Positions 1,146 to 39,398 of a DNA stretch of 64,000 bases are shown one piece after another. Position 1 is the stretch's first letter. Every line of letters starts with the position of its first letter. The notes under the pieces are model-generated. The model did not search any database and had not been told where the DNA came from. It saw only the letters and a program-made list of their open reading frames with translations. Both the position numbers and the translations under genes were made by a program. The DNA lies in assembly GCA_041661505.1 (NCBI GenBank), contig JBAZUF010000004.1, positions 4,861-68,860 of the forward strand, in the 5' to 3' direction. Origin of the DNA: Patescibacteria group bacterium. Its GTDB lineage: Bacteria; Patescibacteriota; Patescibacteriia; Patescibacteriales; JBAZCA01.

Positions 1146-1217
1146 ATGAAGATAAAATCGCTAAAACTTAATTTGCTATTGTTATTGCCTTTAAAACGGG
1201 CGGCGATTTTGTGTTGA
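1146..1217 (+). CDS. leucine-rich leader peptide MKIKSLKLNLLLLLPLKRAAILC
   Basis: 23 codons, 9 of them Leu including 5 consecutive. It lies directly upstream of leuA and overlaps one arm of alternative hairpins. Confidence 0.7.
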   Translation: MKIKSLKLNLLLLLPLKRAAILC

Positions 1218-1272
1218 CATAAAATGTTAGACGGAAAGATACGCAAAGCCGCCCGAAAAGGTGGACTTTTTT
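1197..1272 (+). promoter_or_regulatory. leu attenuator: antiterminator 1197-1204:1248-1255 versus terminator 1245-1272
   Basis: CGGGCGGC is the perfect complement of GCCGCCCG. The latter overlaps the hairpin aaagccgcc/ggtgg(a)cttt, which runs into T6. Confidence 0.6.
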
Positions 1273-1338
1273 ATATTTTATAGGTAAATTAAATACACAG
1301 CCTGCCGTGAATATAAACGGGCCGGGCCAGCAAAAAAT

Positions 1339-2946
1339 ATGGCTAAAGAAAAATACATCCAATTAAACGACGTCTGCCTTCGGGAATCGGCGCAGGTTTC
1401 CGGCGGCGCTATGAGCCCCAAGGATCAGCTTACTTATGTAAGATACCTTTTGGAAGGCGGAATCGACCGGATCGAAATCGGCTTTCCGGGCAGTTCTCCA
1501 GTGCAGTTAGAAAATTCAAAAAGGATCGTCGGTTTCGTAGACAAGAACGCGAAGGTTAAGCGGCCGCTTTTAGGCGGACTCGCGCGGGCGAAAAAAGAAG
1601 ACATTGACGCGATCCGCGAAGCCGGATGCGATTTATGCCATATCTATATTCCTTCTTCGGACGAATTCGTCAAAGCTATGTTTGCCGCGGAAAAATACGG
1701 AGATACGGTGGAGGGCAAGCAAAAGTGGACGATTGACCAGGCGGTAAGCATGGTGCGTTATGCGAAGAGTCTGGGATTTAAAAGCGTTGAATACTCGCCG
1801 GAAGACGCGGCCCGCACCAGCCGGGAATTTCTCTATAAGATGGTGGAGGCGGTAATTTCCGCCGGGGCGGACGTAGTTAATATTCCGGATACGACCGGAC
1901 TGCGCATCGGAAGCGAGTTCGGAGATTTAATCGCGGATATTGAAAAAAACGTGCCTAACCGGAAAAAAGCATTAATCTCGGTCCATTGCCATAACGATTC
2001 GGATCACTCAACCCATAACGCGCTAGAGGCGATTAGAAACGGAGCCGATATTGTCGAAGGGACTTTTTTCGGTCTGGGCGAGCGATCGGGGATGACCAAG
2101 TTTGAGGCGGTTTTAATGAATGTAAACACGCGCCAAGATCTGTTTAGCGGTTTTAAAATAGATTTTAAGCCGGAGCTTTGTGTTAAAATCGTAAACTTTA
2201 CCGCTAACGCCCTGGGCATGTCAGTCCCCAGGCATTGGGTTGTGGCCGGCTCGCAAAATTCTATTTGCTCATCCGGCACCCATCAGGCGATTGAAGCCCG
2301 GGCCAAAGAGCGGGGGATGGAAAGCGCTTATTACAGCTGGCATCCGGAAATTTACGGCCATTCTAAAGTTACCACGGTAATCAACCAGTCATCTGGACGG
2401 GAGGGCCTCCGAAAAAGGCTTGAGGAACTGGGCTATATGCTTGGCTCTGAGGAGATGCAGAAAGTTTACGAGCAGTCGATTAAAATCTCCGAAGCTATGG
2501 CCGGAAAGCCTTTAGAAGACCGGGAACTGGCGGCTATCGTGCATGAAACAATTGACGTTATTCCTTTCCCGATAAAAGTAAAAAGATGCCAGGCCATGGG
2601 CGGAAAAGGAACTATCCCGACCGCTACTGTTGTTATTGAGGTAGAGGGTAAAGAAGGAATCGCGGCCGAAATCGGCGTCGGACCTTATGACGCTATCATG
2701 CATTCCGTCGTCCGGGCGGCGGAAAATTTTTATCCTAAATTAAAAGAAGTGAATATTGTTTTGGACGCCTGGAATCCGACTTCGGTAACTTCCGGGTCGG
2801 ACGCTTTAGCCGATGTTTACGCGCGGATACGGATTAATGATGATATAAACCACGCCTTTTCCGGCCGGGCCGTCCATATCGATACCAACCAGGCTTCGGC
2901 CCAGGCTTTTGCCAACTGTTTAAGCTGGTATTTGGCCTCGCTTTAA
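1339..2946 (+). CDS. leuA: 2-isopropylmalate synthase
   Basis: DRE-TIM metallolyase motifs (HCHNDSDHSTHNAL, GLGERSG) plus a C-terminal LeuA-type regulatory domain (GVGPYDAIMHSV). leuCD and leuB follow. Confidence 0.9.
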   Translation: MAKEKYIQLNDVCLRESAQVSGGAMSPKDQLTYVRYLLEGGIDRIEIGFPGSSPVQLENSKRIVGFVDKNAKVKRPLLGGLARAKKEDIDAIREAGCDLCHIYIPSSDEFVKAMFAAEKYGDTVEGKQKWTIDQAVSMVRYAKSLGFKSVEYSPEDAARTSREFLYKMVEAVISAGADVVNIPDTTGLRIGSEFGDLIADIEKNVPNRKKALISVHCHNDSDHSTHNALEAIRNGADIVEGTFFGLGERSGMTKFEAVLMNVNTRQDLFSGFKIDFKPELCVKIVNFTANALGMSVPRHWVVAGSQNSICSSGTHQAIEARAKERGMESAYYSWHPEIYGHSKVTTVINQSSGREGLRKRLEELGYMLGSEEMQKVYEQSIKISEAMAGKPLEDRELAAIVHETIDVIPFPIKVKRCQAMGGKGTIPTATVVIEVEGKEGIAAEIGVGPYDAIMHSVVRAAENFYPKLKEVNIVLDAWNPTSVTSGSDALADVYARIRINDDINHAFSGRAVHIDTNQASAQAFANCLSWYLASL

Positions 2947-2964
2947 TATATCAAGTTTTAAAAT

Positions 2965-4899
2965 ATGCCGAAGACGGCTTTCCAAAAAATAATTGACGCT
3001 CACGTTAAGAAATTTTTTCCTGACCAAAGGATGGTTTTAGATTTGGATTGGGTATGGGGGCATGAAATTACAACGCCGAACGCCATTTTGGATATGAAAT
3101 CCCGGGGGATAAATTCGGTTTTTAACCCTAACCGGATAAAGCTGATGATTGACCATGTCAATCCGCCAAAAGATACGGCGTCGGCGATTCAGTCAAAAAT
3201 TGTCCGGGACTGGGCGCGGGAAATGGATATTGAATTTTTAGAAGTCGGCCGCAACGGCATTTGCCACGCGGTCATTCCGGAAAAGGGCTGGATCCGGCCG
3301 GGACAAATCGGCATCATGGGCGATTCGCATACCTGCACGCACGGGGCTTTTGGCGCGTTTACCGCCGGCGTCGGGACAACCGACCTGGAGAACGCGCTAA
3401 TTACTGGGCTTTGGATTTGCCCGCCGCAAAAAGTAGTTCGCGTAAATTTTAACGGCGAGCTGGCGAAAAATGTTTTTGCCAAAGATTTGATTTTGGTTTT
3501 GATAAAAAAAATCGGGGTCAAAGGCGCGGCTAACGCGGTACTGGAATTCGGCGGAACTGCCGTGAAAAATATGAGCATGGAAGGGCGGATGACAATCGCC
3601 AACATGGCAATTGAAGCCGGTGCTAGCTCGGGCATGATGATGACGGATGAAAAAACCATCGAATACCTTTGGCCGACTTTGAAGGATGAATTTAAAAATA
3701 GAAAAGAAGCTCTGGCTGATCTGTCAAAATGGAATAGTGACGCGGATGCGAAATATGATCAGGTAATTGATATGGATGCCAGTAAACTGGCGCCGGTAAT
3801 AACTGATAATTTTTCCCCGGAAGACGTCCATTCGGTTAAAGAATTGGCTGGCAAAAAAATTGACCAAGTCTATATCGGCTCCTGCACCAACGGAAGGATT
3901 TCCGATTTAAGGATTGCCGCCGGCGTGTTTAAAGCTATGGGAAAACCGGTACATAAAAATATCCGGTGCATCATCGTGCCGGCTACGGCGCATATTTACG
4001 GCCAGGCTTTGCGCGAAGGGTTAATCGAAATATTTTTACAAGCCGGCTGTTTAATAAGCGCTCCGACTTGCGGCGCTTGCCTGGGGATGTCAAATGGAGT
4101 AATCGCGCCGGGCGAAGTATGCGTTTCAACAACCAACCGCAATTTTCCCGGACGGATGGGAAAGGGCGGGATGGTCCATCTGGCTTCGCCAATAACCGCG
4201 GCTTTAGCGGCAGTGGATGGAAAAATTACCGAGCTGGGTATTGAACTTGGAGAAAAAGTTGAAAAATTTGTTTCTTCCATAATTAAAGACGGGACGCCTA
4301 TGTCTTTAACCGGCTGGAAAGAAAAAAAGGCCGGGCCAGTTGATTATAAAGCCATGCTGAAAAACATAGGCAATGGGGAAGAAAAAGATTTTTCCGGGCC
4401 AGCCGGCTATGCGCCGATAAAAAATATTGATACCGACCAAATTATACCGGCGCGATATTTAACCGAAACCGATAAAGCTGAACTGGGAAGGCATTGCCTG
4501 GAAGACGCTCAATTCAGCGCCGAAGAGAGAAAAATAATTTTAGAATCGCAAATTTTAGTAGCCGATGAAAATTTCGGCTGCGGTTCAAGCCGCGAGCACG
4601 CCCCTTGGGCCTTGGAAGCTAACGGCATAAGATGCGTTATTGCTCCGTCTTTCGCCCGGATTTTTTATAACAACATGTTTAATAATGGATTGCTCTGCAT
4701 TGAACTCCAGCCGGAAGAAATAAGTGAATTGATGGAGGTAAAGCCTAATAGCCTGGAAATTGACTGGAAGAATGGCGTTGCCAAAACGGAAAAAGGGAAG
4801 CAATACAAATTCAGCCTGTCTGATTATCAAAAAGAATTAATTAAAAATGGCGGCAGTGCCGGCTATATGCTAAAGCTGGCCGCGGATATTAATATTTAA
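2965..4899 (+). CDS. leuCD: 3-isopropylmalate dehydratase, fused large and small subunits
   Basis: 644 aa. The N-terminal aconitase-type LeuC part has GDSHTCTHGAFG and GSCTNGRISD. The C-terminal LeuD swivel part has IDTDQIIPARYL and GCGSSREHAPWAL. Confidence 0.9.
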   Translation: MPKTAFQKIIDAHVKKFFPDQRMVLDLDWVWGHEITTPNAILDMKSRGINSVFNPNRIKLMIDHVNPPKDTASAIQSKIVRDWAREMDIEFLEVGRNGICHAVIPEKGWIRPGQIGIMGDSHTCTHGAFGAFTAGVGTTDLENALITGLWICPPQKVVRVNFNGELAKNVFAKDLILVLIKKIGVKGAANAVLEFGGTAVKNMSMEGRMTIANMAIEAGASSGMMMTDEKTIEYLWPTLKDEFKNRKEALADLSKWNSDADAKYDQVIDMDASKLAPVITDNFSPEDVHSVKELAGKKIDQVYIGSCTNGRISDLRIAAGVFKAMGKPVHKNIRCIIVPATAHIYGQALREGLIEIFLQAGCLISAPTCGACLGMSNGVIAPGEVCVSTTNRNFPGRMGKGGMVHLASPITAALAAVDGKITELGIELGEKVEKFVSSIIKDGTPMSLTGWKEKKAGPVDYKAMLKNIGNGEEKDFSGPAGYAPIKNIDTDQIIPARYLTETDKAELGRHCLEDAQFSAEERKIILESQILVADENFGCGSSREHAPWALEANGIRCVIAPSFARIFYNNMFNNGLLCIELQPEEISELMEVKPNSLEIDWKNGVAKTEKGKQYKFSLSDYQKELIKNGGSAGYMLKLAADINI

Positions 4900-4900
4900 T

Positions 4901-6058
4901 ATGGCTAAAAAAATAATCGCATTAGTCGAAGGCGACGGGGCTGGCCCGGAAATGATGCATGAAGCCTGCCGGATAGCGGTTGCCGCCGCCAAAATGGACG
5001 GGATAGAAATTGAATTCGAAAAAACCCCGATGGGCTGGAATGCTTATCATGAACATGGCGATACCTTGCCCGAAGAATCCTTTGAAAAAGCGGTTCGCAT
5101 CGGAACTATTTTTTTCGGCGGCGTCGGCGATCCGAAGTTTGATAAAACCATAGGAATGGAAAAACCGGAAATGAGGCCGGAAGCCCGGGCGCTTTTGGCT
5201 TTAAGGAAAGAAATGGGTCTGTTTTTAAATTTTCGGCCGATTATTTATTATAAATCGCTTGAAGCGCTCGCTAACGTAAAACCGGAAACTATTCCCGAAG
5301 AAGGAGTAAAACAAATCTGGATCCGTTATTTATTGGAAGACAGCTATTTTGGCAATGCCGATTTAATGGACGAGGTGCCGGAAAAGGTGCGGCAGAAAAT
5401 CGGGCTAAAGATGAAAAAAGATGTTTGCCTGGAGGATGAGATAGTCTGCGACCTGGCTTATTATAAAAAATCCACGCTGGAAAAATATATCCGCGCCTGC
5501 TTTGCCTCTGCCCGCGAAATGAAACTGCCCTTAATTTCGATAGACAAGGCCAATGTCATGGCCCGCTATGATTTTTGGCGGAAAATCGCGACGAAAATCG
5601 GCGCCGAAGAATTCCCGGACGTGGAGCTTATCCATCAACTGGTCGACTCGGCCAATTCCATGCTTTTTACGCCGGCCAAATTGCATGGAGTTATCGCCTG
5701 CGGGAACGAGCATGGCGATATCTTATCGGACGGCGCGGCCGCGGCTTTGGGCAGTATGGGGCTCATGTGTTCTTCGGCAGTTAATCCTGATACGGGCCAG
5801 GCAATGTTCGAGTCCGGGGCCGGAACCGCTCCGACTTTAGCCGGCCAGGATAAGGCAAATCCTTTAGGCCGGATTTTAACCGGAGCGTTGATGCTTCGGC
5901 ACATTGGAGCAAAAAAAGGCGCAACTGCCATCGAAGAAGCTGTTAACCGCGCATTGTCAGAAGGCTGGCGCACCGGCGATTTGTTTACAAAAAAAGATGA
6001 CCCGGCCAAACTTTTAGGTACGCAAGCGATGGGGAAAAAAGTTTTGTCATATTTATAG
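4901..6058 (+). CDS. leuB: 3-isopropylmalate dehydrogenase
   Basis: Isocitrate/isopropylmalate dehydrogenase family (GDGAGPEMM, NEHGDILSDGAAA). Operon context supports the call. Confidence 0.9.
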   Translation: MAKKIIALVEGDGAGPEMMHEACRIAVAAAKMDGIEIEFEKTPMGWNAYHEHGDTLPEESFEKAVRIGTIFFGGVGDPKFDKTIGMEKPEMRPEARALLALRKEMGLFLNFRPIIYYKSLEALANVKPETIPEEGVKQIWIRYLLEDSYFGNADLMDEVPEKVRQKIGLKMKKDVCLEDEIVCDLAYYKKSTLEKYIRACFASAREMKLPLISIDKANVMARYDFWRKIATKIGAEEFPDVELIHQLVDSANSMLFTPAKLHGVIACGNEHGDILSDGAAAALGSMGLMCSSAVNPDTGQAMFESGAGTAPTLAGQDKANPLGRILTGALMLRHIGAKKGATAIEEAVNRALSEGWRTGDLFTKKDDPAKLLGTQAMGKKVLSYL

Positions 6059-6102
6059 ATCGTAACGCCTGGCGGAAGATGTCCTTTTTAGCCGGCAAGG
6101 CC

Positions 6103-6131
6103 TTGACAGCGGTAAAGGAATAAAATATAAT
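6103..6131 (+). promoter_or_regulatory. consensus promoter TTGACA-17-TATAAT
   Basis: Both hexamers are perfect with a 17-nt spacer. The predicted start is about 6138 and the mini-ORF ATG is at 6140. Confidence 0.7.
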
Positions 6132-6139
6132 ATTTATAT

Positions 6140-6238
6140 ATGCTTAACCTGGCAAGAAAAATCGTATTGATTGTCGTAGAGGTAGTAGTCATGGTAATGA
6201 CTCCTTTTCGCGTTTGCCGGGTTAGAGTAAGAGCATAA
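6140..6238 (+). CDS. Val/Ile/Leu-rich leader peptide MLNLARKIVLIVVEVVVMVMTPFRVCRVRVRA
   Basis: 32 codons with 10 Val, 2 Ile and 3 Leu, including the run IVLIVVEVVVMV. The mRNA is nearly leaderless, and the 3' part of the ORF forms an antiterminator arm. Confidence 0.7.
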   Translation: MLNLARKIVLIVVEVVVMVMTPFRVCRVRVRA

Positions 6239-6287
6239 AAAGAAAAAAAGCTAAGATGAACCCCCGGCAAACAAGCCGGGTTTTTTT
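6212..6287 (+). terminator. attenuator: antiterminator 6212-6221:6263-6272; terminator cccggc-aaacaa-gccggg plus T7
   Basis: gtttgccggg is the exact reverse complement of cccggcaaac. The terminator stem is 6263-6268/6275-6280, followed by ttttttt at 6281-6287. Confidence 0.7.
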
Positions 6288-6670
6288 GTAAGATGTTCTT
6301 TTGTAGACGGGTGGGCTAATTATGATAACGCGCCTGAAATGGCAAGCGAGCTAATCGTTTTTCGCTTCGGGCGCGTTAAGTAATTGTTTCCTTCGCGGCA
6401 GTCCTGGCGTGCGGCAAGCGACAAAATCGCTTCCAGCAGACGGCGACAGAATCGCCTCTCAATTTTAGCACATAGGGCAAAAACCCGAACAGGCATTTTC
6501 CTGCCAGGCTCTTTCCCGCAAGGCTTTTTTACAAGAGCTAACGCACCCGTAACAATATGGTGTTTCCAAAAGTTTGGAAGCATCCGGGGGGTCTATAGAT
6601 TGCAGATTGATTTATAGATCCCCCTCCTTCCTTTTTCATAATTTAATTAAATATTTAGCCAATTTTAGTC

Positions 6671-6699
6671 TTGACATATGGGCCAAAAAGCACTACTAT
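6671..6699 (+). promoter_or_regulatory. promoter TTGACA-17-TACTAT
   Basis: Perfect -35 hexamer, 17-nt spacer, and a 4/6 match at -10. The predicted start coincides with the ATG at 6706. Confidence 0.5.
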
Positions 6700-6705
6700 T
6701 ATCAT

Positions 6706-6759
6706 ATGATAACCAGACCGCAAAATATTTTATTGGTAAACTTGATTCTACCCACCTAG
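6706..6759 (+). CDS. second branched-chain leader peptide MITRPQNILLVNLILPT
   Basis: 17 codons, 8 of them Ile/Leu/Val. The spacing from the promoter implies a leaderless mRNA. It lies 110 nt upstream of the first ilv-cluster gene. Confidence 0.45.
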   Translation: MITRPQNILLVNLILPT

Positions 6760-6795
6760 ATGGCGGTTTTCCAGCATGGATAAAAGATAAAAACT

Positions 6796-6819
6796 GCCAC
6801 ACTAAAAGGTGGCTTTTTT
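6796..6819 (+). terminator. weak hairpin gccac/gtggc followed by T6
   Basis: 5-bp stem, 8-nt loop, and tttttt at 6814-6819. The upstream cccacc (6751-6756, the end of the mini-ORF) can pair with ggtgg (6808-6812). Confidence 0.4.
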
Positions 6820-6869
6820 AATATAGCGGGCCGTTTAAAAAGCCCGGGGAGAGAAAAAAACATAAAGAT

Positions 6870-8720
6870 ATGACCATCCAAAACGGGACAGTAAAATTTT
6901 ATAAGTTAAAATGCGTTCGATGCGGCGCTGTTTGGGATGAAAAAGAGACTTCGTCCGCCTGCTTAAAATGCGGCGACGCGCTGGAAGCCCACTACGACTG
7001 GGAGTTTATCAAATGCCGTTTAAACCAGTTCAATCTGAAATATACGCCGATTTCCGCCACCAAATATTTGAATTTTTACCCAATTTTGGATTTAAAAAAA
7101 TTAGTTACTTTAAATGAAGGCGGGACTCCCCTTCGAAAATCAAAAAAAATCGCCAAACGGCTGGGACTGGAAAACCTTTATTTTAAGGATGAAACTTCCA
7201 ACCCGACCGGCGGTTTTAAAGACCGGGGGACTATGGTGGAAATAACTAAGGCGCTTGAGATGGGAGCCAAAGCGGTGGTTGTGGCTTCCACCGGAAATAT
7301 GGCCGCTTCGGTTTCGGCTTATGCCAGTCAGGCGGGTATTCCGGCTTACATCGTCGTCCCCGAAGGAACGCCGATTGGAAAACTCTCCCAAACTTTGGCT
7401 TATGGCGCCCGGGTCATCCAAGTCCGCGCCACTTATTCGGAATGCGCGAAACTGGCCGAAGAAATAGCGAAAAAATACGGATTTTATTTGGCCGGTGATT
7501 ATGTTTTTCGGGGCGAGGGGCAGAAATCGCAAGGCTATGAAATTGTCGAACAATTATCCTGGCGCGCGCCGGACTATCTAATCGCGCCGATCGGCTGCGG
7601 GACCAATATCGCGGCGATTTATAAAGGCATAAAAGAATTTCACGATCTGGGCTTTATCGATAAATTGCCGAGAGTCATCGGCGTCCAGCCCGAAGGCGCC
7701 AATACCGTAGTCGACGCCTATAACCGCCGGTCAACGAAAATAAATCCAATTGCCAAGCCCAAAACAATCGCTTCGGCCGTCGCCGTCGGCTACCCTTTAG
7801 ACGGTTTAAAAGTTCTGCGCGATATTAAAGAATCAAAAGGCATGGCGATTAGCGTGAATGACGAAGAGATCTTAAACGCGGAAAAAGAACTGGCTTACGA
7901 GGAATCGATTTTTGTCGAACCGTCGGCCGCGCTTTCGCTGGCCGCCTTGAAAAAAATGTGTTCGAAAAAAATCGTCGGGAAAAATGAAACAGTGGTCTGC
8001 GTTTTGACCGGAAACGGGCTAAAAGATCCGGTAACCATGCTGAAAATTCTCCCATCGCCTCCGTCAATCGAGCCGAAACTCTCGGAAGTCGACCATTATT
8101 TGAAAATGAAATTATATAACATCCAGGCCACGGTCGAAAAAGATAAAGCGGAAATCCTCTTTAGCAAAGCGCCCGGTTTAGCCCAAATAAAAAAAACGGT
8201 GCAAAAGAAGTTCGGCCTGGACTTAACTAAAATTTATCTGGACGCTATCCACGCTGAAGTGAAAGAATTTTTTAATAAAGAAGAAAAAATGAGAAAATCG
8301 GATTTGCAGCACATCATTGAAGCTAATTTAAAAACCGATCCCAAGGCGGTAAAAATAATCAAAGTCGAAGATTTTAAAGTGAGCACTTCAAAAGCCGCTA
8401 AGGCCGAAGCCCAGGTTTGCGTAAAAATCGCCGAGAAACGCATCTGCCGGGTGAATTCTTTCGGCGTGGGGCCGGTGGACGCGATTATGAGAGCGATCCG
8501 CGAAGTCATTAAAAAAGAAAAACTGCCCAATTACTGGCTCATTAATTTTGACGTGAAAATCGACAGCAAAGGAACCGACGCGACGGTGGAAGTTACTATG
8601 GAATTAAAAGACGAAGCCGATAACAAAGTTATCTCAACCGCCGCTTCGCCGGACATTATTGTCGCTTCGATTGAAGCGTTTGAACGGGGATATAATATTC
8701 TCTATAATAAGAAAAAATAA
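6870..8720 (+). CDS. thrC: threonine synthase fused to a C-terminal LeuA-type (LeuA_dimer-like) regulatory domain
   Basis: N-terminal Zn ribbon (CVRCG...CLKCG). The PLP-lysine motif NPTGGFKDRG and ASTGNMAAS are typical of ThrC. The C-terminal ~200 aa (FGVGPVDAIMRAIREV...ASPDIIVASIEAFERGYNIL) resemble the regulatory domains of the LeuA and CimA proteins in this window. Confidence 0.8.
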   Translation: MTIQNGTVKFYKLKCVRCGAVWDEKETSSACLKCGDALEAHYDWEFIKCRLNQFNLKYTPISATKYLNFYPILDLKKLVTLNEGGTPLRKSKKIAKRLGLENLYFKDETSNPTGGFKDRGTMVEITKALEMGAKAVVVASTGNMAASVSAYASQAGIPAYIVVPEGTPIGKLSQTLAYGARVIQVRATYSECAKLAEEIAKKYGFYLAGDYVFRGEGQKSQGYEIVEQLSWRAPDYLIAPIGCGTNIAAIYKGIKEFHDLGFIDKLPRVIGVQPEGANTVVDAYNRRSTKINPIAKPKTIASAVAVGYPLDGLKVLRDIKESKGMAISVNDEEILNAEKELAYEESIFVEPSAALSLAALKKMCSKKIVGKNETVVCVLTGNGLKDPVTMLKILPSPPSIEPKLSEVDHYLKMKLYNIQATVEKDKAEILFSKAPGLAQIKKTVQKKFGLDLTKIYLDAIHAEVKEFFNKEEKMRKSDLQHIIEANLKTDPKAVKIIKVEDFKVSTSKAAKAEAQVCVKIAEKRICRVNSFGVGPVDAIMRAIREVIKKEKLPNYWLINFDVKIDSKGTDATVEVTMELKDEADNKVISTAASPDIIVASIEAFERGYNILYNKKK

Positions 8721-8721
8721 T

Positions 8722-9624: not shown

Positions 9625-9641
9625 TTTTGAAACTGCCTCTT

Positions 9642-11261: not shown

Positions 11262-11297
11262 ATTATTTTTGATTATATTCTACCATGTTAAATTTAT

Positions 11298-21502: not shown

Positions 21503-21781
21503 AAAAAACCTCCCATCCTTTTATCTAAATAAAATATTTTAGATAAAAGGACGAGAGGTTATCCCGCGGTGCCACCCTTTTTTCCTCCGCCCGAGGCGGA
21601 GAACGCTTACTGACTCGTAAATTGAAATCAGTTATCCTCTGGTTACGGAGGAAGCCGGGCCCTCACTAGCGCAAGAGCCGCCTTTCCCGTCCTGTATTGC
21701 GCAAGACGGGGTAAACTAGACCCAGTCCCTTGGCAGAACCAAGGGATCCAGTTTTAGGCTTTATAGTTGTTAAATTGCTTA
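21503..21781 (-). promoter_or_regulatory. T-box leader (tRNA-sensing riboswitch) of the trp operon, with a terminator
   Basis: The minus strand reads AAAAAAGGGUGGCACCGCGGGAUAACCUCUCGUCC, with the T-box core at 21563-21577. It is preceded by a Stem-III-like hairpin CUCCGCC-UCG-GGCGGAG. A long terminator hairpin at 21509-21558 ends in U6. Confidence 0.85.
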
Positions 21782-21787
21782 ATATTA

Positions 21788-21816
21788 TTTATAGCACAGA
21801 GCTAAACTGCTGTCAA
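21788..21816 (-). promoter_or_regulatory. promoter TTGACA-17-TATAAA for the trp leader
   Basis: On the minus strand the -35 hexamer is at 21816..21811, the spacer is 17 nt, and the -10 hexamer is at 21793..21788. Confidence 0.6.
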
Positions 21817-21898: not shown

Positions 21899-21907
21899 CT
21901 ATTATAG

Positions 21908-31469: not shown

Positions 31470-31553
31470 AAAAAAACCGGCTGTCTTTCAAGGCCGGGTT
31501 ATATTCTTAAGTAATTTATTAGTCTTTAATTTATTCTGCAAAAAGCCGGCCTT
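31470..31553 (-). promoter_or_regulatory. aromatic-operon attenuator: antiterminator 31553..31546:31497..31490 versus terminator 31497..31477 plus U7
   Basis: On the minus strand AAGGCCGG, inside the leader ORF, is the perfect complement of CCGGCCUU. The latter overlaps the terminator stem CCGGC/GCCGG, which is followed by UUUUUUU (31476..31470). Confidence 0.7.
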
Positions 31554-31609
31554 TTAATAAGGTTAAAATAGAAATAAAAGTAGCTAAACCAGATTTGGCC
31601 GAATTTCAT
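31526..31609 (-). CDS. aromatic leader peptide MKFGQIWFSYFYFYFNLIKRPAFCRIN
   Basis: 27 codons, 10 of them aromatic, with the contiguous run W-F-S-Y-F-Y-F-Y-F. It lies between the promoter and the first gene of the aromatic operon. Confidence 0.8.
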   Translation of the reverse strand: MKFGQIWFSYFYFYFNLIKRPAFCRIN

Positions 31610-31638: not shown

Positions 31639-31667
31639 ATAATACACATTTTCAAAAGACGTGTCAA
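31639..31667 (-). promoter_or_regulatory. promoter TTGACA-17-TATTAT
   Basis: On the minus strand the -35 hexamer is at 31667..31662 and the -10 hexamer at 31644..31639. Confidence 0.6.
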
Positions 31668-32894: not shown

Positions 32895-32923
32895 TTGAAA
32901 ATTTGGGAAAATAAAGGTAAGAT
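32895..32923 (+). promoter_or_regulatory. promoter TTGAAA-17-TAAGAT
   Basis: Hexamers read by eye upstream of pheA. Confidence 0.4.
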
Positions 32924-32970
32924 TGGATTAGCCTGGCTTCTTGCAGGCGAGTTAAATATAACTTATTTAT

Positions 32971-33552
32971 ATGAGCGCCAAAATAATTATCGGGGTTTCA
33001 GGAAACAAGGGAAGTTTTACCGAAGAGGCCGCCAAGCACTACTGCACCGAAGAAAAGATTCAAAATTATGAGCTTGCCTATCTCACTTCCGTAGAAAATG
33101 TTTTGCGCGATCTGGGTAAAGGAAAAATCGATAAAGGCGTTTTTCCGATCGAAAACTCGACCGGAGGAGTTGTTATTGAGGCGGTGGAAGCTATGGCCCG
33201 CTATATATTTGCCATCGAAAAAATGTTCGAAATTGAGATAAAGATGAATCTGCTTATGAAAAAAGGAATAAAGCCGGAAGATATAAAATCAATTACTTCG
33301 CACCAGCAGGCGCTGCGTCAATGCCGGATGTATTTAAAAAGAAAATATCCCAAAGCCGAACTCTGCGAATATCCGGATACGGCGACGGCCGCCAAGGATT
33401 TAGCCGACGGAGTATTGCCGGAAACTACCGCCGTAATCGCCCCGAAAATCTGCGCCGAATTGTATGATTTAGAATTGGCCGAAGAGGGCATCCAGGATTT
33501 AAAATTTAATTTTACGTCTTTTATCGTAGCCGCGAACGAGCATGCCTATTAA
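32971..33552 (+). CDS. pheA: prephenate dehydratase, catalytic domain only (no ACT domain)
   Basis: GNKGSFTEEAA, FPIENSTGGVV and NFTSFIV correspond to PDT motifs. At 193 aa it ends where the ACT domain would begin. Confidence 0.8.
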   Translation: MSAKIIIGVSGNKGSFTEEAAKHYCTEEKIQNYELAYLTSVENVLRDLGKGKIDKGVFPIENSTGGVVIEAVEAMARYIFAIEKMFEIEIKMNLLMKKGIKPEDIKSITSHQQALRQCRMYLKRKYPKAELCEYPDTATAAKDLADGVLPETTAVIAPKICAELYDLELAEEGIQDLKFNFTSFIVAANEHAY

Positions 33553-34570
33553 AAAAACAGTTTCCATAATCGGGTTCGGACGCTTCGGCCAGTTAACCGC
33601 AAGCGTCTTTTCGAAACGGGCGGAAGTTTTAATATATGAAAGCCGCGTTAAAAATGACCATAAACTCAAAGCGAAAAAAATCGGGGCAAAAATCGTAAAT
33701 TTAAAATTAGCGGCGAGCGCGGATTTGATAATTTTAGCAGTTCCTATTTCTGCGGCCGAAAAAGTGATTAAACAAATCGCTCCGTATGTCCGCCCCGGAT
33801 CTTTAATTGTCGACACCTGTTCAGTAAAAGCATACCCTTGCGGCTGGCTAAAAAAATATTTGCCGAAAAGCGTAGAAATCATGGGTACCCATCCGCAATT
33901 CGGCCCGGTTACGACCAAGTTTAATTTTGAAAAACAATCCTATAAGTTAAAAGGCCTGCAAATCGTTTTATGTCCGATAAGAATCGGCGGCGCGCGCCTT
34001 GGGGCGGTGAAAAATTTTTTAACCGGCTTGGAACTGAAAGTTATCATAACCACCCCGGAAGACCATGACCGCCAAAACGCTTATACTCTCGGCCTCGTCC
34101 ATTTTGTCGGGCGGGCTTTGCTCGGCGCCGGCGCCCGCGAACAGGAAATATATACTCCCGGCTATACGGACTTGCTTTCCATCCTGCCGCATACCACTTC
34201 CGATAACTGGCAATTGTTTTACGACATGCACAATTATAATCCATACGCCGAATCAGTGCGCCTTAAATTTATGGGAGCCTGCGAATCAATGGACGAGCGG
34301 ATTAGAAAAGCTAATGTAAAAGACGAACTGGGTTTCCGGCGGGAGGCGATTAATAAAATCGACTGCCGGGTTTTTAAATTATTAAAAGACCGTTTCCGGC
34401 AAGTTAGGGCGATAGGAAAAATTAAGGGTAAAAAAGGCTTGCCAATCCAGGACAAAAAAAGGGAAGAAGATATAATAAAAGATAAAGTGAAAAAATTCAA
34501 GATGGACAAGAATTTTGTTGAAGGGATTTACCATTCAATATTTAAAGAAGCTTACCGGAAACAGAAATAA
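33542..34570 (+). CDS. tyrA: prephenate dehydrogenase with a C-terminal AroQ-type chorismate mutase
   Basis: Rossmann motif IIGFGRFGQ and GTHPQFGP. The C-terminal ~85 aa (REAINKIDCRVFKLLKDRF...DKKREEDII) look like a type II chorismate mutase. Confidence 0.8.
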   Translation: MPIKKTVSIIGFGRFGQLTASVFSKRAEVLIYESRVKNDHKLKAKKIGAKIVNLKLAASADLIILAVPISAAEKVIKQIAPYVRPGSLIVDTCSVKAYPCGWLKKYLPKSVEIMGTHPQFGPVTTKFNFEKQSYKLKGLQIVLCPIRIGGARLGAVKNFLTGLELKVIITTPEDHDRQNAYTLGLVHFVGRALLGAGAREQEIYTPGYTDLLSILPHTTSDNWQLFYDMHNYNPYAESVRLKFMGACESMDERIRKANVKDELGFRREAINKIDCRVFKLLKDRFRQVRAIGKIKGKKGLPIQDKKREEDIIKDKVKKFKMDKNFVEGIYHSIFKEAYRKQK

Positions 34571-34581: not shown

Positions 34582-35304
34582 ATGAAAGAAAAACCATCGG
34601 CCTATGACGACGCCGAGATAATTTCCGTCTCTGACCAGAATTTAGAAATACATAATCGGGCTTTTCTAGACTTAAACCTCAAGGAAATTATCCCGCCTAA
34701 TGCCGTCGTCGTAAATATGGGAAGCGGAGTGGAAAAGCTCTTCGAAAAAGAATTATTGAAAGAGCGGCCGGACATTAACTTCGTTTCGGTAGATTTCTCT
34801 TTGGGGCTGGAAGACTATACGAAAGGCGAAGCAGAGAAAGAATCTAAAAATAATCAGTGGACGGTTATATCTCCTACCAGTCCCCACGACAAAACCGCGA
34901 TATACGCGAAGAAGCCTTTGGGCCAGGAATTCTTAGATGATATCGAGGAAGAAAAGCTAAGCGAGCTTACCGAGAGCGAAAAAAGGAGGCACTGGAAAAA
35001 AAGATACCAGTCGTTAAAAGAGGTTCCTGGTTCAGTCGCCATGAAAGCGCCAAAATTGGCATTGGCCGACAATTCCGCGGATACAGTTGTTGATTTCATG
35101 GGCGCCTATCAATACCTTAAAGACGACCAGGCGAGAAAAGAATATTTGGAAGAAATCCGCCGGATATTAAAGCCAGGCGGCGCGTTATATATTTACGCGG
35201 ACAGCCTCTTTCCGGAGACTCTTGCCGCCCAGATCGAGGGATTGCAAGTTGACGAAGAAAGGGTCAGGAGCGGTAAGCGGGTGTTAAAAATATCAAAAGC
35301 TTAG
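34582..35304 (+). CDS. putative class I SAM-dependent methyltransferase
   Basis: VVNMGSGVEK (motif I-like) and ILKPGGALYIY. Substrate unknown. Confidence 0.5.
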   Translation: MKEKPSAYDDAEIISVSDQNLEIHNRAFLDLNLKEIIPPNAVVVNMGSGVEKLFEKELLKERPDINFVSVDFSLGLEDYTKGEAEKESKNNQWTVISPTSPHDKTAIYAKKPLGQEFLDDIEEEKLSELTESEKRRHWKKRYQSLKEVPGSVAMKAPKLALADNSADTVVDFMGAYQYLKDDQARKEYLEEIRRILKPGGALYIYADSLFPETLAAQIEGLQVDEERVRSGKRVLKISKA

Positions 35305-35355: not shown

Positions 35356-35384
35356 TTGACAAGTTCTAGCCTATCCGGTAATAT
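35356..35384 (+). promoter_or_regulatory. promoter TTGACA-17-TAATAT
   Basis: Perfect -35 hexamer. The ATG at 35391 is exactly 7 nt after the -10 hexamer, giving leaderless geometry. Confidence 0.6.
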
Positions 35385-35390
35385 ATAAAC

Positions 35391-35477
35391 ATGAGAAAAT
35401 TTACCGTTTCCACAATTACCATGAAGATGACCGGCATTATTATGACCGGGAATTTAATGTGGACGGTAAAGCTATAA
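35391..35477 (+). CDS. Thr/Met/Ile-rich leader peptide MRKFTVSTITMKMTGIIMTGNLMWTVKL
   Basis: 28 codons with 6 Thr, 4 internal Met and 3 Ile. The 3' end of the ORF is one arm of an antiterminator. Confidence 0.6.
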   Translation: MRKFTVSTITMKMTGIIMTGNLMWTVKL

Positions 35478-35531
35478 AGTCAAGTTAGCGAATTGAAATA
35501 AGCAGCCGTCCACACCCGGACGGCATTTTTA
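35460..35531 (+). terminator. attenuator: tggacgg(35460-35466):ccgtcca(35506-35512) versus terminator gccgtcc/ggacggc plus aTTTTT
   Basis: Terminator stem 35505-35511/35518-35524 with T tract 35525-35530. The alternative 7-bp pairing uses the W-T-V codons of the leader ORF. Confidence 0.65.
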
Positions 35532-35655: not shown

Positions 35656-35844
35656 ATGGAAGAGAATGACGGAATTGTTTGTTTTTGCCGCGTATGCGGT
35701 AAAAAAATGGTAGTTGAGTCAAGGGGCGGCAATCTTGACGCCGCCGCCCTAAAAAACATGCTTTCCTGCTCCGATGCTTGTCGCGAGCGGGAACGCGAGC
35801 AATTAATCTCCGCCCCCAAGAGCATTGTTTTTCAGGGGATATAA
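35656..35844 (+). CDS. small Zn-ribbon-like protein, 62 aa
   Basis: AAGGAGG lies 5 nt upstream of the ATG. Contains CFCRVCG...CSDAC. Confidence 0.5.
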   Translation: MEENDGIVCFCRVCGKKMVVESRGGNLDAAALKNMLSCSDACREREREQLISAPKSIVFQGI

Positions 35845-35855: not shown

Positions 35856-36032
35856 ATGTTCCTTCAAAAGTCCTCCGTTCCGCGGGAGAAAAAAAAGGTA
35901 ACCGTTCTAAACTGCGGAATTTGCGGAAAGGAAGTCAAGCTGGTGGTCGCGAGAGACTATCCAGAAGACCTGATCCGCAAAATGGCGTCCCCGGTTTGCA
36001 AGGAATGCAAAATAGAACTGGGGATAGGATAG
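35856..36032 (+). CDS. small Zn-ribbon-like protein, 58 aa
   Basis: AAGGAG upstream. Contains CGICG...CKEC (two CxxC pairs). Confidence 0.5.
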   Translation: MFLQKSSVPREKKKVTVLNCGICGKEVKLVVARDYPEDLIRKMASPVCKECKIELGIG

Positions 36033-36167: not shown

Positions 36168-36542
36168 ATGAGGCTTATGTGGCGGGCAGTAATAGGCAGG
36201 TGTTCGACTCCGGATTGCGGGCTGGATTATGAGCTAGTACCCACGAGCTGGAAAGAAAGAGGGAAAGCAAAGAGAGGGGAATTGCCTTGCCCTGACTGTA
36301 AGTGTTACGAAGCAGTCGTTCTGGCCATTGGTAATTGTATTTCCCAAGGCGGTAGGGCAATAACTAAGGCCGGGGAGATTGTATCAACAACTCTATTGGT
36401 GCCGTGCAAGAATTGTTTAAGAGACTTTCTTTACACGGCCTCCAGCGAGGAAGATGCATTAAGAGCTAAACACGGGGCTGAAATTTGTGTCTTATGCCAG
36501 CAATTAGAAAGGGGAAAAAATGGCAAAACCTGCATGGGGTGA
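36168..36542 (+). CDS. Cys-rich hypothetical protein, 124 aa
   Basis: GAGGGGGAG upstream. Contains several CxxC-type pairs (CSTPDC, CPDCKC, CKNC, CVLC). Confidence 0.5.
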   Translation: MRLMWRAVIGRCSTPDCGLDYELVPTSWKERGKAKRGELPCPDCKCYEAVVLAIGNCISQGGRAITKAGEIVSTTLLVPCKNCLRDFLYTASSEEDALRAKHGAEICVLCQQLERGKNGKTCMG

Positions 36543-36885
36543 TCTCTATCTGAAGCCAGGTGAGGAATATCCAATCGGTCCTCAACCCGGTGATCTCCTG
36601 ATAAACCAAGGACCTGTAATTAAAGGTGTTTGTTCGAAATGCCGCCGTTGGTTTGAGGAGTCGGTGGAAAATTTCGAGATCGTGATGAAGACGAGGAGAT
36701 GCTTTACCTGCCGCGGCAGCGACTGGGGGAGTATTACTTCCCGGCTCATTTTGCACCAAGAGGTGTTGTCTGATGGTTATGTATCAGAAACACCACTTGA
36801 AGATCTTTGGGCGCTGGAGAAACCCCCAACCTCCGTACCGGCAGGAGTTAAAGATTTGGCCGATATCGGGTTCTGGCAAGATTAA
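36520..36885 (+). CDS. hypothetical protein with a CxxC...CxxC motif, 121 aa
   Basis: AAAGGGG upstream. Overlaps the previous ORF by 23 nt. Contains CSKC...CFTC. Confidence 0.5.
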   Translation: MAKPAWGDLYLKPGEEYPIGPQPGDLLINQGPVIKGVCSKCRRWFEESVENFEIVMKTRRCFTCRGSDWGSITSRLILHQEVLSDGYVSETPLEDLWALEKPPTSVPAGVKDLADIGFWQD

Positions 36886-37038: not shown

Positions 37039-37066
37039 TTGACATAAAATATAAAGCGCATAAATT
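37039..37066 (+). promoter_or_regulatory. promoter TTGACA-16-TAAATT upstream of cimA
   Basis: Perfect -35 hexamer. The implied 5' UTR is very short and has no SD. Confidence 0.45.
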
Positions 37067-37081: not shown

Positions 37082-38656
37082 ATGCCAAAAGGAGTAAAGA
37101 TTTACGATACAACCTTGCGCGACGGGACCCAGGCGGAGAATTTCAGCCTGACGGTTTCCGATAAAATAAAGATCGCCTTAAAGCTTGATGATTTAGGCCT
37201 GCATTATATTGAAGGCGGCTGGCCGGGTTCTAACCCTAAGGACGCGGCTTTTTTTAATGAAATAAAAAAGCACGAATTGAAAAACGCGGTTATTGTTGCT
37301 TTTGGCTCGACTCATCATCCGGCGGTTTTAGCCGAAGATGACTTGAACCTGAAAGCCTTGGCCGATTCCGGCGCGAAAGCCGTAACAATTTTTGGCAAAG
37401 CCTGGACCGTGCAGGTAAAAGAAGCTTTGAATATCCCGCTGGAAAAAAATTTGGAAATAATTTTAGAAAGCTTAAGAATTTTGAGGCCGCGGGTTAAAGA
37501 GCTTTTTTTTGACGCCGAGCATTTTTTTGACGGTTATAAGGCGGATTCGGAATATGCTTTGGCGGTTTTATCTAGGGCCTTAGAAGGCGGGGCTGATTGT
37601 TTGGTGTTATGCGATACTAACGGCGGAAGCATGCCAAGCGATATCCGGCAAATTATCACTAAAGTCAAAGAAAGGTTTCCTGCGGCGGAATTAGGCATCC
37701 ATGCCCATAACGATTCCGAGCTGGCGGTAGCCAACACCATGACGGCGGTTAAGCTCGGAGCAGTCCAGGTTCAGGGAACGATTAACGGGATTGGCGAACG
37801 CTGCGGAAACGCGAATTTATGCTCAATAATTCCCAATCTGATTTTAAAAAAGGGTGTTATGTGCCTGCCGAAAGAAAATTTAAAAAAATTATCGGCCGCG
37901 AGCCGCTTTGTCAGCGAATTGGCGAATTTAAATCCTAACCGCTATCAGCCGTATGTCGGACAAAGCGCTTTTGCCCATAAGGGCGGAGTGCACATTAACG
38001 CCGCCTTGAAAAATCCGATGACTTATGAGCATATTGATCCGGCTTTGGTCGGGAACATCCGGCGCATTTTAGTTTCCGATCTTTCCGGCCGCTCGGCTAT
38101 AGCGAAAAAATTGGAAGACTTTGGCATTAATTTATCCAAGACTGATCCGGCGGCCTTGAAAATTTTAAATGAAGTAAAGGAATTGGAAAACCACGGCTAT
38201 CAGTTTGAAGCGGCCGAAGCCAGTTTTGAGCTTTTGGCCAGCCGCCTGCTTGGGAAAAACAAAAATTATTTCCAGTTGGTTGATTACCGGGTGACTGACT
38301 GCAAGGCCGGAGAAGGGGAGGCGCCGTCCATCGAGGCAACAGTAAGGATTAAAGTAAAAGATCGCGAAGAGCATAGCACGGCCAAAGGCGTCGGCCCGGT
38401 TGATGCCCTAAACAATGCTTTAAGAAAGTCTTTGGAAAAAATTTATCCCCAGCTAAACGGCATGAAGCTTACGGATTATAAGGTCCGGGTATTGCCGACG
38501 AATGACGGTACGGCGGCCCGGGTAAGGGTATTAATTGAATCCTGCGACGATAAAGACTACTGGGGCACGGTCGGGGTATCAGTTGATATATTAGAGGCAA
38601 GCTGGATGGCTTTAGTCGATAGTTTTAATTACAAATTGTATAAAGAAGAAAAATAA
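37082..38656 (+). CDS. cimA: (R)-citramalate synthase
   Basis: IYDTTLRDGTQAE, the YIEGGWPGSNPKD signature of the CimA branch, HAHNDSELAVANT, and a C-terminal regulatory domain GVGPVDALNNAL...VDILEASWMAL. Confidence 0.8.
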   Translation: MPKGVKIYDTTLRDGTQAENFSLTVSDKIKIALKLDDLGLHYIEGGWPGSNPKDAAFFNEIKKHELKNAVIVAFGSTHHPAVLAEDDLNLKALADSGAKAVTIFGKAWTVQVKEALNIPLEKNLEIILESLRILRPRVKELFFDAEHFFDGYKADSEYALAVLSRALEGGADCLVLCDTNGGSMPSDIRQIITKVKERFPAAELGIHAHNDSELAVANTMTAVKLGAVQVQGTINGIGERCGNANLCSIIPNLILKKGVMCLPKENLKKLSAASRFVSELANLNPNRYQPYVGQSAFAHKGGVHINAALKNPMTYEHIDPALVGNIRRILVSDLSGRSAIAKKLEDFGINLSKTDPAALKILNEVKELENHGYQFEAAEASFELLASRLLGKNKNYFQLVDYRVTDCKAGEGEAPSIEATVRIKVKDREEHSTAKGVGPVDALNNALRKSLEKIYPQLNGMKLTDYKVRVLPTNDGTAARVRVLIESCDDKDYWGTVGVSVDILEASWMALVDSFNYKLYKEEK

Positions 38657-38746: not shown

Positions 38747-39169
38747 ATGGCTGATAATAATATAATCAACGACCAAAATAAGCCGGCTGATAAAGAACCG
38801 ACTCTTTATGATGTTTTAGACGCCATAAATGTTTTTGCGACAAAAACTGATGAGCGGCTTGAGAATATAGAATCAACCATGGTGACTAAAGATTTTTTGG
38901 AAAAACGGTTGACTCCGATAGAATTAACCATGGTAACTAAAGATTTCTTGGAAAAACGGTTAGCGCCCATTGAGGCCAATATGGTAACCCGGGATTATCT
39001 TGATGATAAGCTTGGCGATTTAAAAGGCGATTTGATTGTAACCATGAGAAAAGAAGACGCCAAATTAAGAATTTTGATAGAGATTCTTCGAGGGAAAAGC
39101 GTTATATCCGAAGACGAAGAAAAACGGATTTTATCCATGGAACCGTTTCCTAAGCTATATGTTAGCTAA
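38747..39169 (+). CDS. coiled-coil protein with a 17-aa tandem repeat (TMVTKDFLEKRLxPIEx); paralog of 713..1141
   Basis: 140-aa ORF. Shares the N-terminal KEPTxxDxxxAI and ATxxDxxxENIxS blocks with the 713 protein. Confidence 0.7.
   Translation: MADNNIINDQNKPADKEPTLYDVLDAINVFATKTDERLENIESTMVTKDFLEKRLTPIELTMVTKDFLEKRLAPIEANMVTRDYLDDKLGDLKGDLIVTMRKEDAKLRILIEILRGKSVISEDEEKRILSMEPFPKLYVS
38876..39028 (+). repeat. 51-bp in-frame tandem repeat, 3 units (the third diverged)
   Basis: accatggtgactaaagat... at 38876 and accatggtaactaaagat... at 38927. Confidence 0.85.
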
Positions 39170-39190
39170 GGTTAAAGTAAATATTTTATA

Positions 39191-39219
39191 TTGACATTTG
39201 GTAGGCTCTTCGCTACAAT
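39191..39219 (+). promoter_or_regulatory. promoter TTGACA-17-TACAAT
   Basis: Perfect -35 hexamer and a 5/6 match at -10. The mini-ORF ATG at 39229 is 9 nt after the -10 hexamer. Confidence 0.6.
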
Positions 39220-39228
39220 GGAATCAAT

Positions 39229-39309
39229 ATGAATTTAAACCAAGTCAAAATTGGATCCCCCATTTCCGGCGGTTGTGGCGGTAGTGGCTCATGCATTGAG
39301 CAATTTTGA
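39229..39309 (+). CDS. Gly/Ser/Cys-rich leader peptide MNLNQVKIGSPISGGCGGSGSCIEQF
   Basis: 26 codons with 6 Gly, 4 Ser and 2 Cys in the block SGGCGGSGSC. The stop codon lies inside an antiterminator arm. Confidence 0.55.
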   Translation: MNLNQVKIGSPISGGCGGSGSCIEQF

Positions 39310-39398
39310 GGATGGTTTAAAAAGAAGAACATGCATAGGTTAGCAACAAAGCTAAAATAAGACACAAGCCATCCTCAAAGGGATGGCTTTAGCGTTTT
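39307..39398 (+). terminator. attenuator: tgaggatgg(39307-39315):ccatcctca(39369-39377) versus terminator agccatcc/ggatggct plus a T-rich tail
   Basis: The 9-bp and 8-bp perfect stems share nt 39369-39374. The tail ttagcgtttt is at 39389-39398. Confidence 0.6.

Follow-up and report, generated by a model that had tools for sequence, protein, structure and literature searches.

Six predicted leader-peptide attenuators, four with putative leaderless starts, in an amino-acid biosynthesis supercluster of a Patescibacteria-labelled genome

The proteobacterial attenuators trpL, leuL, ilvL/ivbL, thrL, pheL, and hisL combine a short open reading frame (ORF) rich in end-product codons, mutually exclusive antiterminator and terminator structures, and an intrinsic terminator before the first structural gene, with the position of the ribosome deciding the outcome. 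Leaderless leader peptides have also been described: 14 were predicted in Deinococcus deserti from mapped start sites (PMC4007540), a leaderless ilvB leader is reported from Corynebacterium diphtheriae (PMC5784534), and leaderless polycysteine small ORFs (sORFs) in mycobacteria provide regulon-wide translational attenuation, the “Cys ribulon” (10.1101/834739). Here we analyse a 64,000-nt stretch of DNA (the window) from a Patescibacteria group bacterium and describe six mini-ORF units, which we call leu, ilv1, ilv2, aro, thr, and cys, within an amino-acid biosynthesis supercluster that runs without a break through positions 1-44,300. We consider it highly probable that all six act as transcription attenuators under the control of the ribosome, in the classical manner of trp, leu, and ilv: pathway match, conservation, synonymous codon changes, covariation, and switch placement all agree in silico with the leader-peptide mechanism that an original prediction, made from the window's letters, had proposed.

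The units resemble the proteobacterial attenuators in all of the features listed above, and they differ from them in that the leader ORFs lack a Shine-Dalgarno (SD) sequence, four being predicted to start at the 5' end of the transcript, in having no sequence or covariance-model similarity to Rfam leader families, in the absence of a region-1 anti-antiterminator from leu and aro, and in the presence of a Ser/Gly/Cys leader and, before an ADH-pathway aro operon, of a leader that combines Phe/Tyr/Trp. The Deinococcus and Corynebacterium systems share with the layout predicted for the window a leader-peptide AUG at the transcription start, ahead of amino-acid biosynthesis or tRNA synthetase genes, and the wiring of several operons in this way; here, however, the phylum is Patescibacteria (the Candidate Phyla Radiation, CPR), the starts are only predicted, and the units are packed in one 44-kb supercluster. 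The mycobacterial Cys ribulon resembles the predicted units in consisting of leaderless sensory sORFs that exert regulon-level, ribosome-mediated control by one amino-acid pool, but it unmasks a ribosome-binding site, whereas the window hairpins are predicted intrinsic terminators with SD-less targets, and the units would sense several amino-acid families; with their U tracts, hairpins far from gene starts, and SD-less enzyme genes, they do not fit the mycobacterial type of translational sORF. The original prediction, which had set leaderless leaders apart from the textbook mechanism as unusual, overstated their novelty, since such leaders are published (PMC4007540, PMC5784534, 10.1101/834739). 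What is notable is the phylum, the density (six units and a T-box-like leader in 44 kb), and two uncommon specificities, with the textbook mechanism unchanged. We came across no publication that connects leader peptides or, in this sense, leaderless mRNAs with CPR/Patescibacteria. Leaderless leader-peptide attenuation would reach a third, deeply branching group beyond Actinobacteria and Deinococcus, and it fits naturally with SD-independent initiation.

The six ORFs, of 17-32 codons each, share the strand of the operons they precede, namely leu, ilv (with two ORFs in tandem), aro, thr/ile, and cys/ser (Table 1). Their biased cores are LLLLL (leu), IVLIVVEVVVMVM, WFSYFYFYF (aro), T/I/M (thr), and SGGCGGSGS (cys), and in 6/6 units they match the nearby pathway (leuA/CD/B, ilv genes, ADH-pathway aro operon, citramalate synthase, and cysK-serACB), bearing out the claim that codon usage is biased toward the end products of that pathway. 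The gene behind the thr leader of the relative L029 encodes a 452-aa threonine synthase, a usual length for the stand-alone enzyme, and a kinase-like ORF accompanies it. The two new sensor specificities suggested here are Phe/Tyr/Trp on an ADH-type shikimate route and Ser/Gly/Cys on cysK-serACB.

Table 1. Predicted regulatory features and gene groups of the supercluster, in window coordinates.
Feature	Position	Strand	Remarks
Promoter-like site TTGACA-17-TATAGT	658..686	+	before 142-aa ORF 713-1141; sole candidate promoter for leu unit
leu leader ORF MKIKSLKLNLLLLLPLKRAAILC	1146..1217	+	conserved NLLLLLPL[KR]R in L022, L024
leu antiterminator 5' strand CGGGCGGC	1197..1204	+	pairs with 1248-1255, 8 bp
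leu terminator hairpin CCGCCC-GAAAA-GGTGG + T tract	1249..1272	+	upstream of leuA/leuCD/leuB
leuA, fused leuCD, leuB	1339-6058	+	
ilv1 promoter TTGACA-17-TATAAT (12/12)	6103..6131	+	
ilv1 leader ORF, predicted leaderless, MLNLARKIVLIVVEVVVMVMTPFRVCRVRVRA	6140..6238	+	orthologue in L023 at 4577
ilv1 antiterminator strand	6212-6221	+	inside leader ORF
ilv1 terminator CCCGGC-AAACAA-GCCGGG + T7	6263..6287	+	
Conserved ~355-nt element, evidently non-coding	6289..6644	+	between ilv1 terminator and ilv2 promoter
ilv2 promoter TTGACA-17-TACTAT	6671..6699	+	
ilv2 leader ORF, predicted leaderless, MITRPQNILLVNLILPT	6706..6759	+	9-11 orthologues with Ile/Val runs
ilv2 antiterminator 5' strand TGGCGGTTTT	6761..6770	+	pairs with 6790-6799, one G-U
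ilv2 terminator GCCAC-ACTAAAAG-GTGGC + T6	6796..6819	+	upstream of thrC-like/ilvE/ilvD/ilvB/ilvC/ridA
Threonine-synthase-like protein fused to LeuA regulatory domain, ilvE, ilvD, ilvB, ilvC, ridA	6870-14611	+	
trpE (annotated) and six ORFs trpG/D/C/F/B/A	21417-14699	-	
trp leader: promoter-like TTGACA-17-TATAAA (21816-21788), T-box-like RNA (21697-21544), terminator hairpin (21557-21510)	21510..21816	-	upstream of trpEGDCFBA
Archaeal-type aro operon: ADH synthase, DHQ synthase II, aspartate kinase, asd, aroA, aroK/E, aroD, aroC	31420-22491	-	
aro terminator CCGGC...GCCGG + T7	31470..31497	-	upstream of ADH synthase ... aroC operon
aro antiterminator strand	31553-31546	-	
aro leader ORF MKFGQIWFSYFYFYFNLIKRPAFCRIN	31526..31609	-	ATG 31609, untranslated region (UTR) ~23 nt, no SD
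aro promoter TTGACA-17-TATTAT	31639..31667	-	
argB (-); pheA and tyrA/chorismate mutase (+)	31857-34570		
thr/ile promoter TTGACA-17-TAATAT	35356..35384	+	
thr/ile/met leader ORF, predicted leaderless, MRKFTVSTITMKMTGIIMTGNLMWTVKL	35391..35477	+	antiterminator strand 35458-35466
thr terminator GCCGTCC-ACACCC-GGACGGC + T tract	35505..35530	+	upstream of four small SD-led ORFs and citramalate synthase
Citramalate synthase	37082-38656	+	
cys/ser promoter TTGACA-17-TACAAT	39191..39219	+	
ser/gly/cys leader ORF, predicted leaderless, MNLNQVKIGSPISGGCGGSGSCIEQF	39229..39309	+	antiterminator strand 39305-39315 spans stop codon
cys/ser terminator AAGCCATCC(T)-CAAA-(G)GGATGGCTT	39366..39400	+	upstream of small ORF, cysK/M, serA, serC, serB (39449-44264)
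cysK/M, serA, serC, serB	39871-44264	+	
Seven small ORFs (46-135 aa)	35656-35844, 35856-36032, 36168-36542, 36520-36885, 39449-39856, 40959-41132, 41178-41318	+	

Relatives were found through homologues of the thrC-like fusion protein and through a metagenome scan with tyrA, and a generic scan for a biased sORF with a terminator, too noisy on its own and with several hits inside coding regions, served solely to collect orthologues. Each of the six units is found again in metagenomic contigs of relatives (loci with L numbers) at 61-83% protein identity, the number of genomes being 3 for leu, 2 for ilv1, 9-11 for ilv2, 5 for aro, 3 for thr, and 2 for cys. The leu motif returns in two loci (Table 1) and the ilv1 tail (...VCRVRVRA) in L023, while ilv2 has Ile/Val runs such as DIVVVVSLII, NIIIIIIIIA, LIIIVIIAIAA, and GIIIINIII in nine or more genomes. 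The aro core reads WFSYFYFYF in L029 and L030, FYFYF (in a leaderless-type unit) in L025, and YFYSFYFW in L039; MTGIIMTG marks thr in L029 and L030, and SGGCGGSGS stands directly before cysK in L029. L022 and L029 are parts of one contig that holds five of the six units in the same order as the window. In all, some 25 unannotated sORFs are supplied for annotation.

Within the conserved cores, every nucleotide difference between the window and its relatives is synonymous. Four of the 8 codons of the leu core differ (TTG, CTA, TTA, and CTC being interchanged), as do 3/9 in aro, and 7/9 in cys (11 nt), including the serine exchanges AGT to or from TCG and TCA to or from AGC, each of which needs several substitutions. 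This pattern argues that the ORFs are read as codons, because an untranslated RNA would not show it.

The 3' part of the ORF is a perfect Watson-Crick complement of the 5' arm of the terminator in five units: 11 bp in cys and 10 bp in ilv1 (each length reached by 0/1000 upstream shuffles), 9 bp in thr (1/1000), and 8 bp in both leu (2/1000) and aro (18/1000). The perfect 7-10 bp complement claimed for all units thus holds, at 8-11 bp, for these five, but not for ilv2 in the window, where the 10 bp include one G-U. Between the ORF and the first gene, five units have a hairpin followed by 5-7 T, the tract being interrupted in cys. Intrinsic terminators with a hairpin and U tract also end ordinary genes in the window, for example aroC and argB, and so are evidently in use in this genome.

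Covariation was assessed for ilv2 in an alignment of nine sequences. The two antiterminator strands (columns 15-24 and 50-59) pair in 90.5% of cells, and sliding the partner strand lowers this to 18-52%. Compensatory changes occur at four of the pairs, and 0/500 shuffles attain the covariation score; the terminator stem GCCACC/GGTGGC is essentially invariant and therefore uninformative for covariation. Complementarity is also kept, across sequence differences between the window and relatives, in the thr, leu, and cys helices: thr has GTGGACGG/CCGTCCAC in the window and GCGGGCGGC/GCCGCCCGC in L029, the leu helix changes from GGGCGGC/GCCGCCC in the window to GGGTGGC/GCCACC in a relative, and the cys terminator from CCATCC/GGATGG to CCGTCC/GGACGG. 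Alignment of orthologues, a check named with the original prediction, thus finds the codon bias kept and compensatory changes present.

Folding of each unit, another check named there, places the antiterminator/terminator switch near the end of the codon run. We placed a ribosome at each codon and masked everything up to 12 nt past the A-site codon, and we added a co-transcriptional measure, namely whether the terminator 5' arm is already paired before the 3' arm exists; an earlier equilibrium folding with pairs spanning the ribosome gave confusing results for ilv1 and cys and was replaced by the masked model. The equilibrium probability of the terminator rises from about 0 to about 1 at L14/P15 in leu, T21/P22 in ilv1, L15/P16 in ilv2, N16/L17 in aro, and T19/G20 in thr, and cys switches at I23/E24 on the co-transcriptional (kinetic) measure only, so that in all six window units the switch falls 0-2 codons past the last biased codon. 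With no ribosome at all, thr, cys, ilv1, and ilv2 default in folding to termination via a region 1:2 helix. An automated pass over 21 leaders of relatives found 19 with at least one of the two measures placing the switch near the run end (slash at the switch: IIIID/NQ, FYFYFG/T, SGGCGGSGS/K, MTGIIMT/GV). This pass is noisy: several single-measure calls are degenerate, with borderline thresholds or a mis-chosen hairpin, there was no terminator call for L025 ilv2 and window aro, and the L039 leu call is unusable.

The ilv2 and leu attenuators share a GCCACC/GGTGG terminator core, and a covariance model built solely from ilv2 attenuators weakly detects all the leu attenuators, at 18-28 bits, in the window (1184-1271), L022 (3742-3808), L024 (4942-5020), and L039 (4890-4974). 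The units may accordingly be duplicates of one GCCACC/GGTGG cassette in which the codon run was later swapped.

Several observations weigh against reading the six units as attenuators of the operons behind them. The leu and aro units, without their region-1 anti-antiterminator, are predicted to read through when untranslated, and no unit matches an Rfam leader family (a cmscan search of positions 1-40000 at E <= 1 returned the T-box only). In the window ilv1 does not directly precede a gene, the 355-nt element and a second promoter lying between, and the ilv2 peptide is less biased than its orthologues, its helix requiring a G-U. The first ORFs past the thr terminator encode small proteins without an assigned family, and citramalate synthase has a promoter-like site of its own (37039-37066). 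The weakest unit is cys, with two Cys codons only, two sequences only, and an interrupted terminator U tract in the window (TAGCGTTTTAG); its orthologue in L029 does carry a U tract. Equilibrium folding of cys favours the terminator in almost all ribosome states, so that the model needs a kinetic, co-transcriptional argument here.

From these features we infer the transcription starts, the actual termination and read-through, and the response to amino acids. RNA polymerase would initiate at a strong promoter of the sigma-70 type. For four units the mRNA would start at the AUG or within ~3 nt of it and a ribosome would load on the 5' end without an SD, as the promoter geometry suggests; in aro translation would begin from a short SD-less UTR, and the leu leader would be read just past the upstream ORF, probably by coupling or reinitiation. 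With charged tRNAs plentiful, the ribosome would reach the end of the mini-ORF and cover region 2, the segment able to pair with the terminator 5' arm; the terminator hairpin and U tract would then form, and transcription would stop ahead of the operon. If charging is poor for the tRNAs of Leu, Ile/Val, Phe/Tyr/Trp, Thr/Ile/Met, or Ser/Gly/Cys, the ribosome would stall in the codon run, leaving region 2 free to pair with the terminator 5' arm, and polymerase would enter the biosynthetic genes. A Patescibacteria-labelled genome and its relatives carry a large prototrophy island in which the operons of five pathways are predicted to be under ribosome feedback and trp under a T-box-like leader.

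For the four units with adjacent promoters, a start of the mini-ORF at the 5' end of the transcript, as predicted from those promoters, fits the evidence. The -10 elements end at 6131, 6699, 35384, and 39219 and the ATGs lie at 6140, 6706, 35391, and 39229, leaving gaps of 8, 6, 6, and 9 nt; these positions match exactly those first given for the four units, and the two exceptions set out with them, the ~23-nt UTR of aro and the lack of an own promoter in leu, also stand. Alternatively, attenuation would be the same but the ORFs would not be leaderless, internal SD-less initiation taking place on transcripts that begin further upstream and either read through from leuB, the methyltransferase-like ORF 34582-35304, or ORF 38747-39169, or come from other promoters. 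The promoters are after all consensus matches only, the leu and aro leaders are clearly not leaderless, and the ilv2 orthologues in L026 and L052 have an apparent TTG start ~30-45 nt past the -10 and so not adjacent to the promoter. Moreover, the 44/52 window genes without an SD must initiate in some other way: an anti-SD duplex of -6 kcal/mol or better is found in 8/52 only, as was claimed for the core genes of this organism and in line with the finding, already published, that some of the CPR have lost SD usage (PMC9297842). We nevertheless regard this alternative as unlikely. The four promoters score 10-12 of 12, and relatives keep the TTGACA, a spacer of 16-17 nt, and a -10-to-ATG gap of 6-11 nt although the spacer sequences have diverged. 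Among ~12 distinct window sites with a perfect TTGACA, 5 of these strong promoter-like sites have an ATG 6-11 nt past the -10, where the background probability is 0.076 for each site (P = 0.0013, binomial). Leaderless initiation requires an AUG start; all four predicted leaderless ORFs, like the leaderless-type units of relatives, begin with ATG, and the four have no SD, with an anti-SD duplex no stronger than -3.3 kcal/mol. A gap kept at 6-11 nt despite unrelated spacers, an ATG, and no SD are what leaderless initiation predicts.

Other readings depart further from transcription attenuation. If the hairpins acted post-transcriptionally, what the mini-ORF governs would be how the downstream message is translated or how stable it is, as in the translational leaderless-sORF system established experimentally in mycobacteria (10.1101/834739), and the window cys hairpin, without a clean U tract, would suit such a role; yet 5/6 hairpins have 5-7 U directly behind them and precede the first enzyme gene by 60-130 nt (by 480 nt in the case of cysK), the downstream enzyme genes have no SD to sequester, and the orthologous cys hairpin in L029 has its U tract, which makes this reading very improbable. 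We give little credence to the mini-ORFs being independent small-protein genes with their own terminators and a coincidental pathway match. The ilv1, ilv2, and leu peptides are indeed hydrophobic, residues beyond the codon run are conserved (VCRVRVRA, RPxFC), and ilv1 in the window precedes an RNA element, not a gene; however, all six peptides match the products of the adjacent pathway, those of aro, thr, and cys are not membrane-like, the nucleotides of region 2 coincide with the conserved tails, the helices that compete with the terminators covary, and in the window and most relatives the switch point follows the place where the codon run ends. Least credible of all are RNA-only, protein- or tRNA-binding switches (T-box-, riboswitch-, or TRAP-like) with untranslated ORFs: the same cluster does have a T-box-like leader for trp, but Rfam returns nothing for the units at E <= 1, relatives conserve both the reading frames and the positions of the stops, and the purely synonymous core substitutions, including the two-step Ser switches, indicate selection on the encoded codons, not on the RNA sequence.

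The trp operon is preceded by a different kind of leader, for which the original prediction had named a T-box. Its 3' half aligns well to the Rfam T-box model (RF00230), with AAAGGGUGGCACCGCG, an antiterminator, and a terminator; the score of 36.9 bits (local E = 1e-6) does not reach Rfam's gathering score of 93, the alignment deletes stem I almost wholly, and no specifier was identified. The trp leader is therefore plausibly a T-box, an atypical member at best. It shares the T-box sequence and the antiterminator/terminator pair with the known family, whereas the six mini-ORF units show no T-box features. On the opposite strand, a strong promoter-like site (TTGACA-16/18; 21869-21960, +) points away from the trp promoter, and directly after it come an 18-codon ORF with a hairpin and U tract and then a 96-aa Cys-rich ORF (22046-22336, +). 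We rejected the 18-codon ORF as a seventh unit, since the amino-acid bias is absent; tblastn with the 96-aa ORF against the relatives' loci gave no matches. A candidate arg leader before argB was also rejected, there being no mini-ORF and only a hairpin without a U tract.

Between ilv1 and ilv2 lies the 355-nt element, of which nhmmer found one other copy, in L023 (4728-5097), there directly upstream of the ilv operon; further contigs gave more leaders and no third copy, and an Rfam scan of 6080-6880 at E <= 10 returned nothing relevant. Indel lengths between the two copies are not multiples of three. The element has a long hairpin with six one-sided, G-U-compatible changes, two hairpins of the GCGAC-ARAAT-CGC type, and a terminal long covarying hairpin at 6586-6624. 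On these two copies a structured RNA is predicted, though unproven. Tandem attenuators occur in relatives: L025 (8950-9893) has three ILV leaders ahead of one ilv operon, and L039 (4210-5560) has Ile, Leu, and aromatic leaders in series ahead of pheA, so that the ilv1 and ilv2 pair of the window is a milder form of such stacking.

The seven small ORFs of Table 1 follow the thr and cys terminators or stand between cysK and serA. All are preceded by a strong SD (GGAGG or GGGAG), and most are Cys-rich with CxxC pairs; in a genome otherwise lacking SDs, hardly any genes but those of these mini-proteins have one. The layout recurs in L039 and L055, where SD-led small ORFs follow the leaders. None of the seven matches a Pfam family, and a homologue search with the 62-aa Cys-rich ORF found its own lineage only. 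We raise, as a speculation that is decidedly unlikely to hold, that the attenuators control more than enzymes, several of them releasing on starvation a hitherto undescribed module of the ~355-nt RNA and the SD-led Cys-rich (zinc-ribbon-like) mini-proteins, which might be trans-acting regulators or specialised translation factors. If this were true, the predicted leaderless sensors would be the input layer of a CPR-specific starvation response.

The CPR, or Patescibacteria, are generally portrayed as auxotrophic symbionts, and little is known of their gene regulation. Proteins identical to those of the window are deposited as “MAG: ... [Patescibacteria group bacterium]” (MAG, metagenome-assembled genome), on a 149-kb contig. 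For a MAG so labelled it is unusual to carry, in one contiguous 44-kb island, the synthesis of Leu, Ile/Val, Trp, Phe/Tyr, and Ser/Cys together with part of that of Thr/Arg. The names trpG/D/C/F/B/A follow from operon order and from Pfam calls on the syntenic genes of relatives. The aro operon encodes the archaeal-type route, its aspartate kinase and aspartate-semialdehyde dehydrogenase supplying the precursor of that route; the distant relative L025 has the DAHP synthase route instead, still with an FYFYF leader.

The leu leader ORF begins 4 nt past the stop of the 142-aa coiled-coil ORF 713-1141 and overlaps the stop of the upstream ORF in L024, which suggests translational coupling. Paralogous coiled-coil proteins with an N-terminal KEPT..D...AI motif (713-1141 and 38747-39169, both +; L024 4493-4891) immediately precede the leu and cys leaders. 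Close homologues of leuB (62-76% identity) occur with a fused leuCD in MAGs labelled Nitrospiraceae, Saganbacteria/WOR-1, Saccharibacteria, Parcubacteria, and Gammaproteobacteria. The 21 loci probed with leuB (L001-L021) share only leuCD-leuB, with no synteny and no leaders by a strict promoter-based scan, and the presence of this pair in inconsistently labelled MAGs that lack the remainder of the cluster suggests that bins are mislabelled or that the two genes have spread laterally.

The ilv operon opens with a gene (6870-8720, +) for a fusion of a threonine-synthase-family, pyridoxal phosphate-dependent enzyme with a LeuA allosteric (dimerisation) domain. It has 6,562 homologues at E <= 1e-20; nearly all of the 120 listed have the two-domain architecture, and the named homologues among the matches listed come for the most part from MAGs labelled as CPR. 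A separate 138-aa ORF carries the LeuA_dimer domain in L029.

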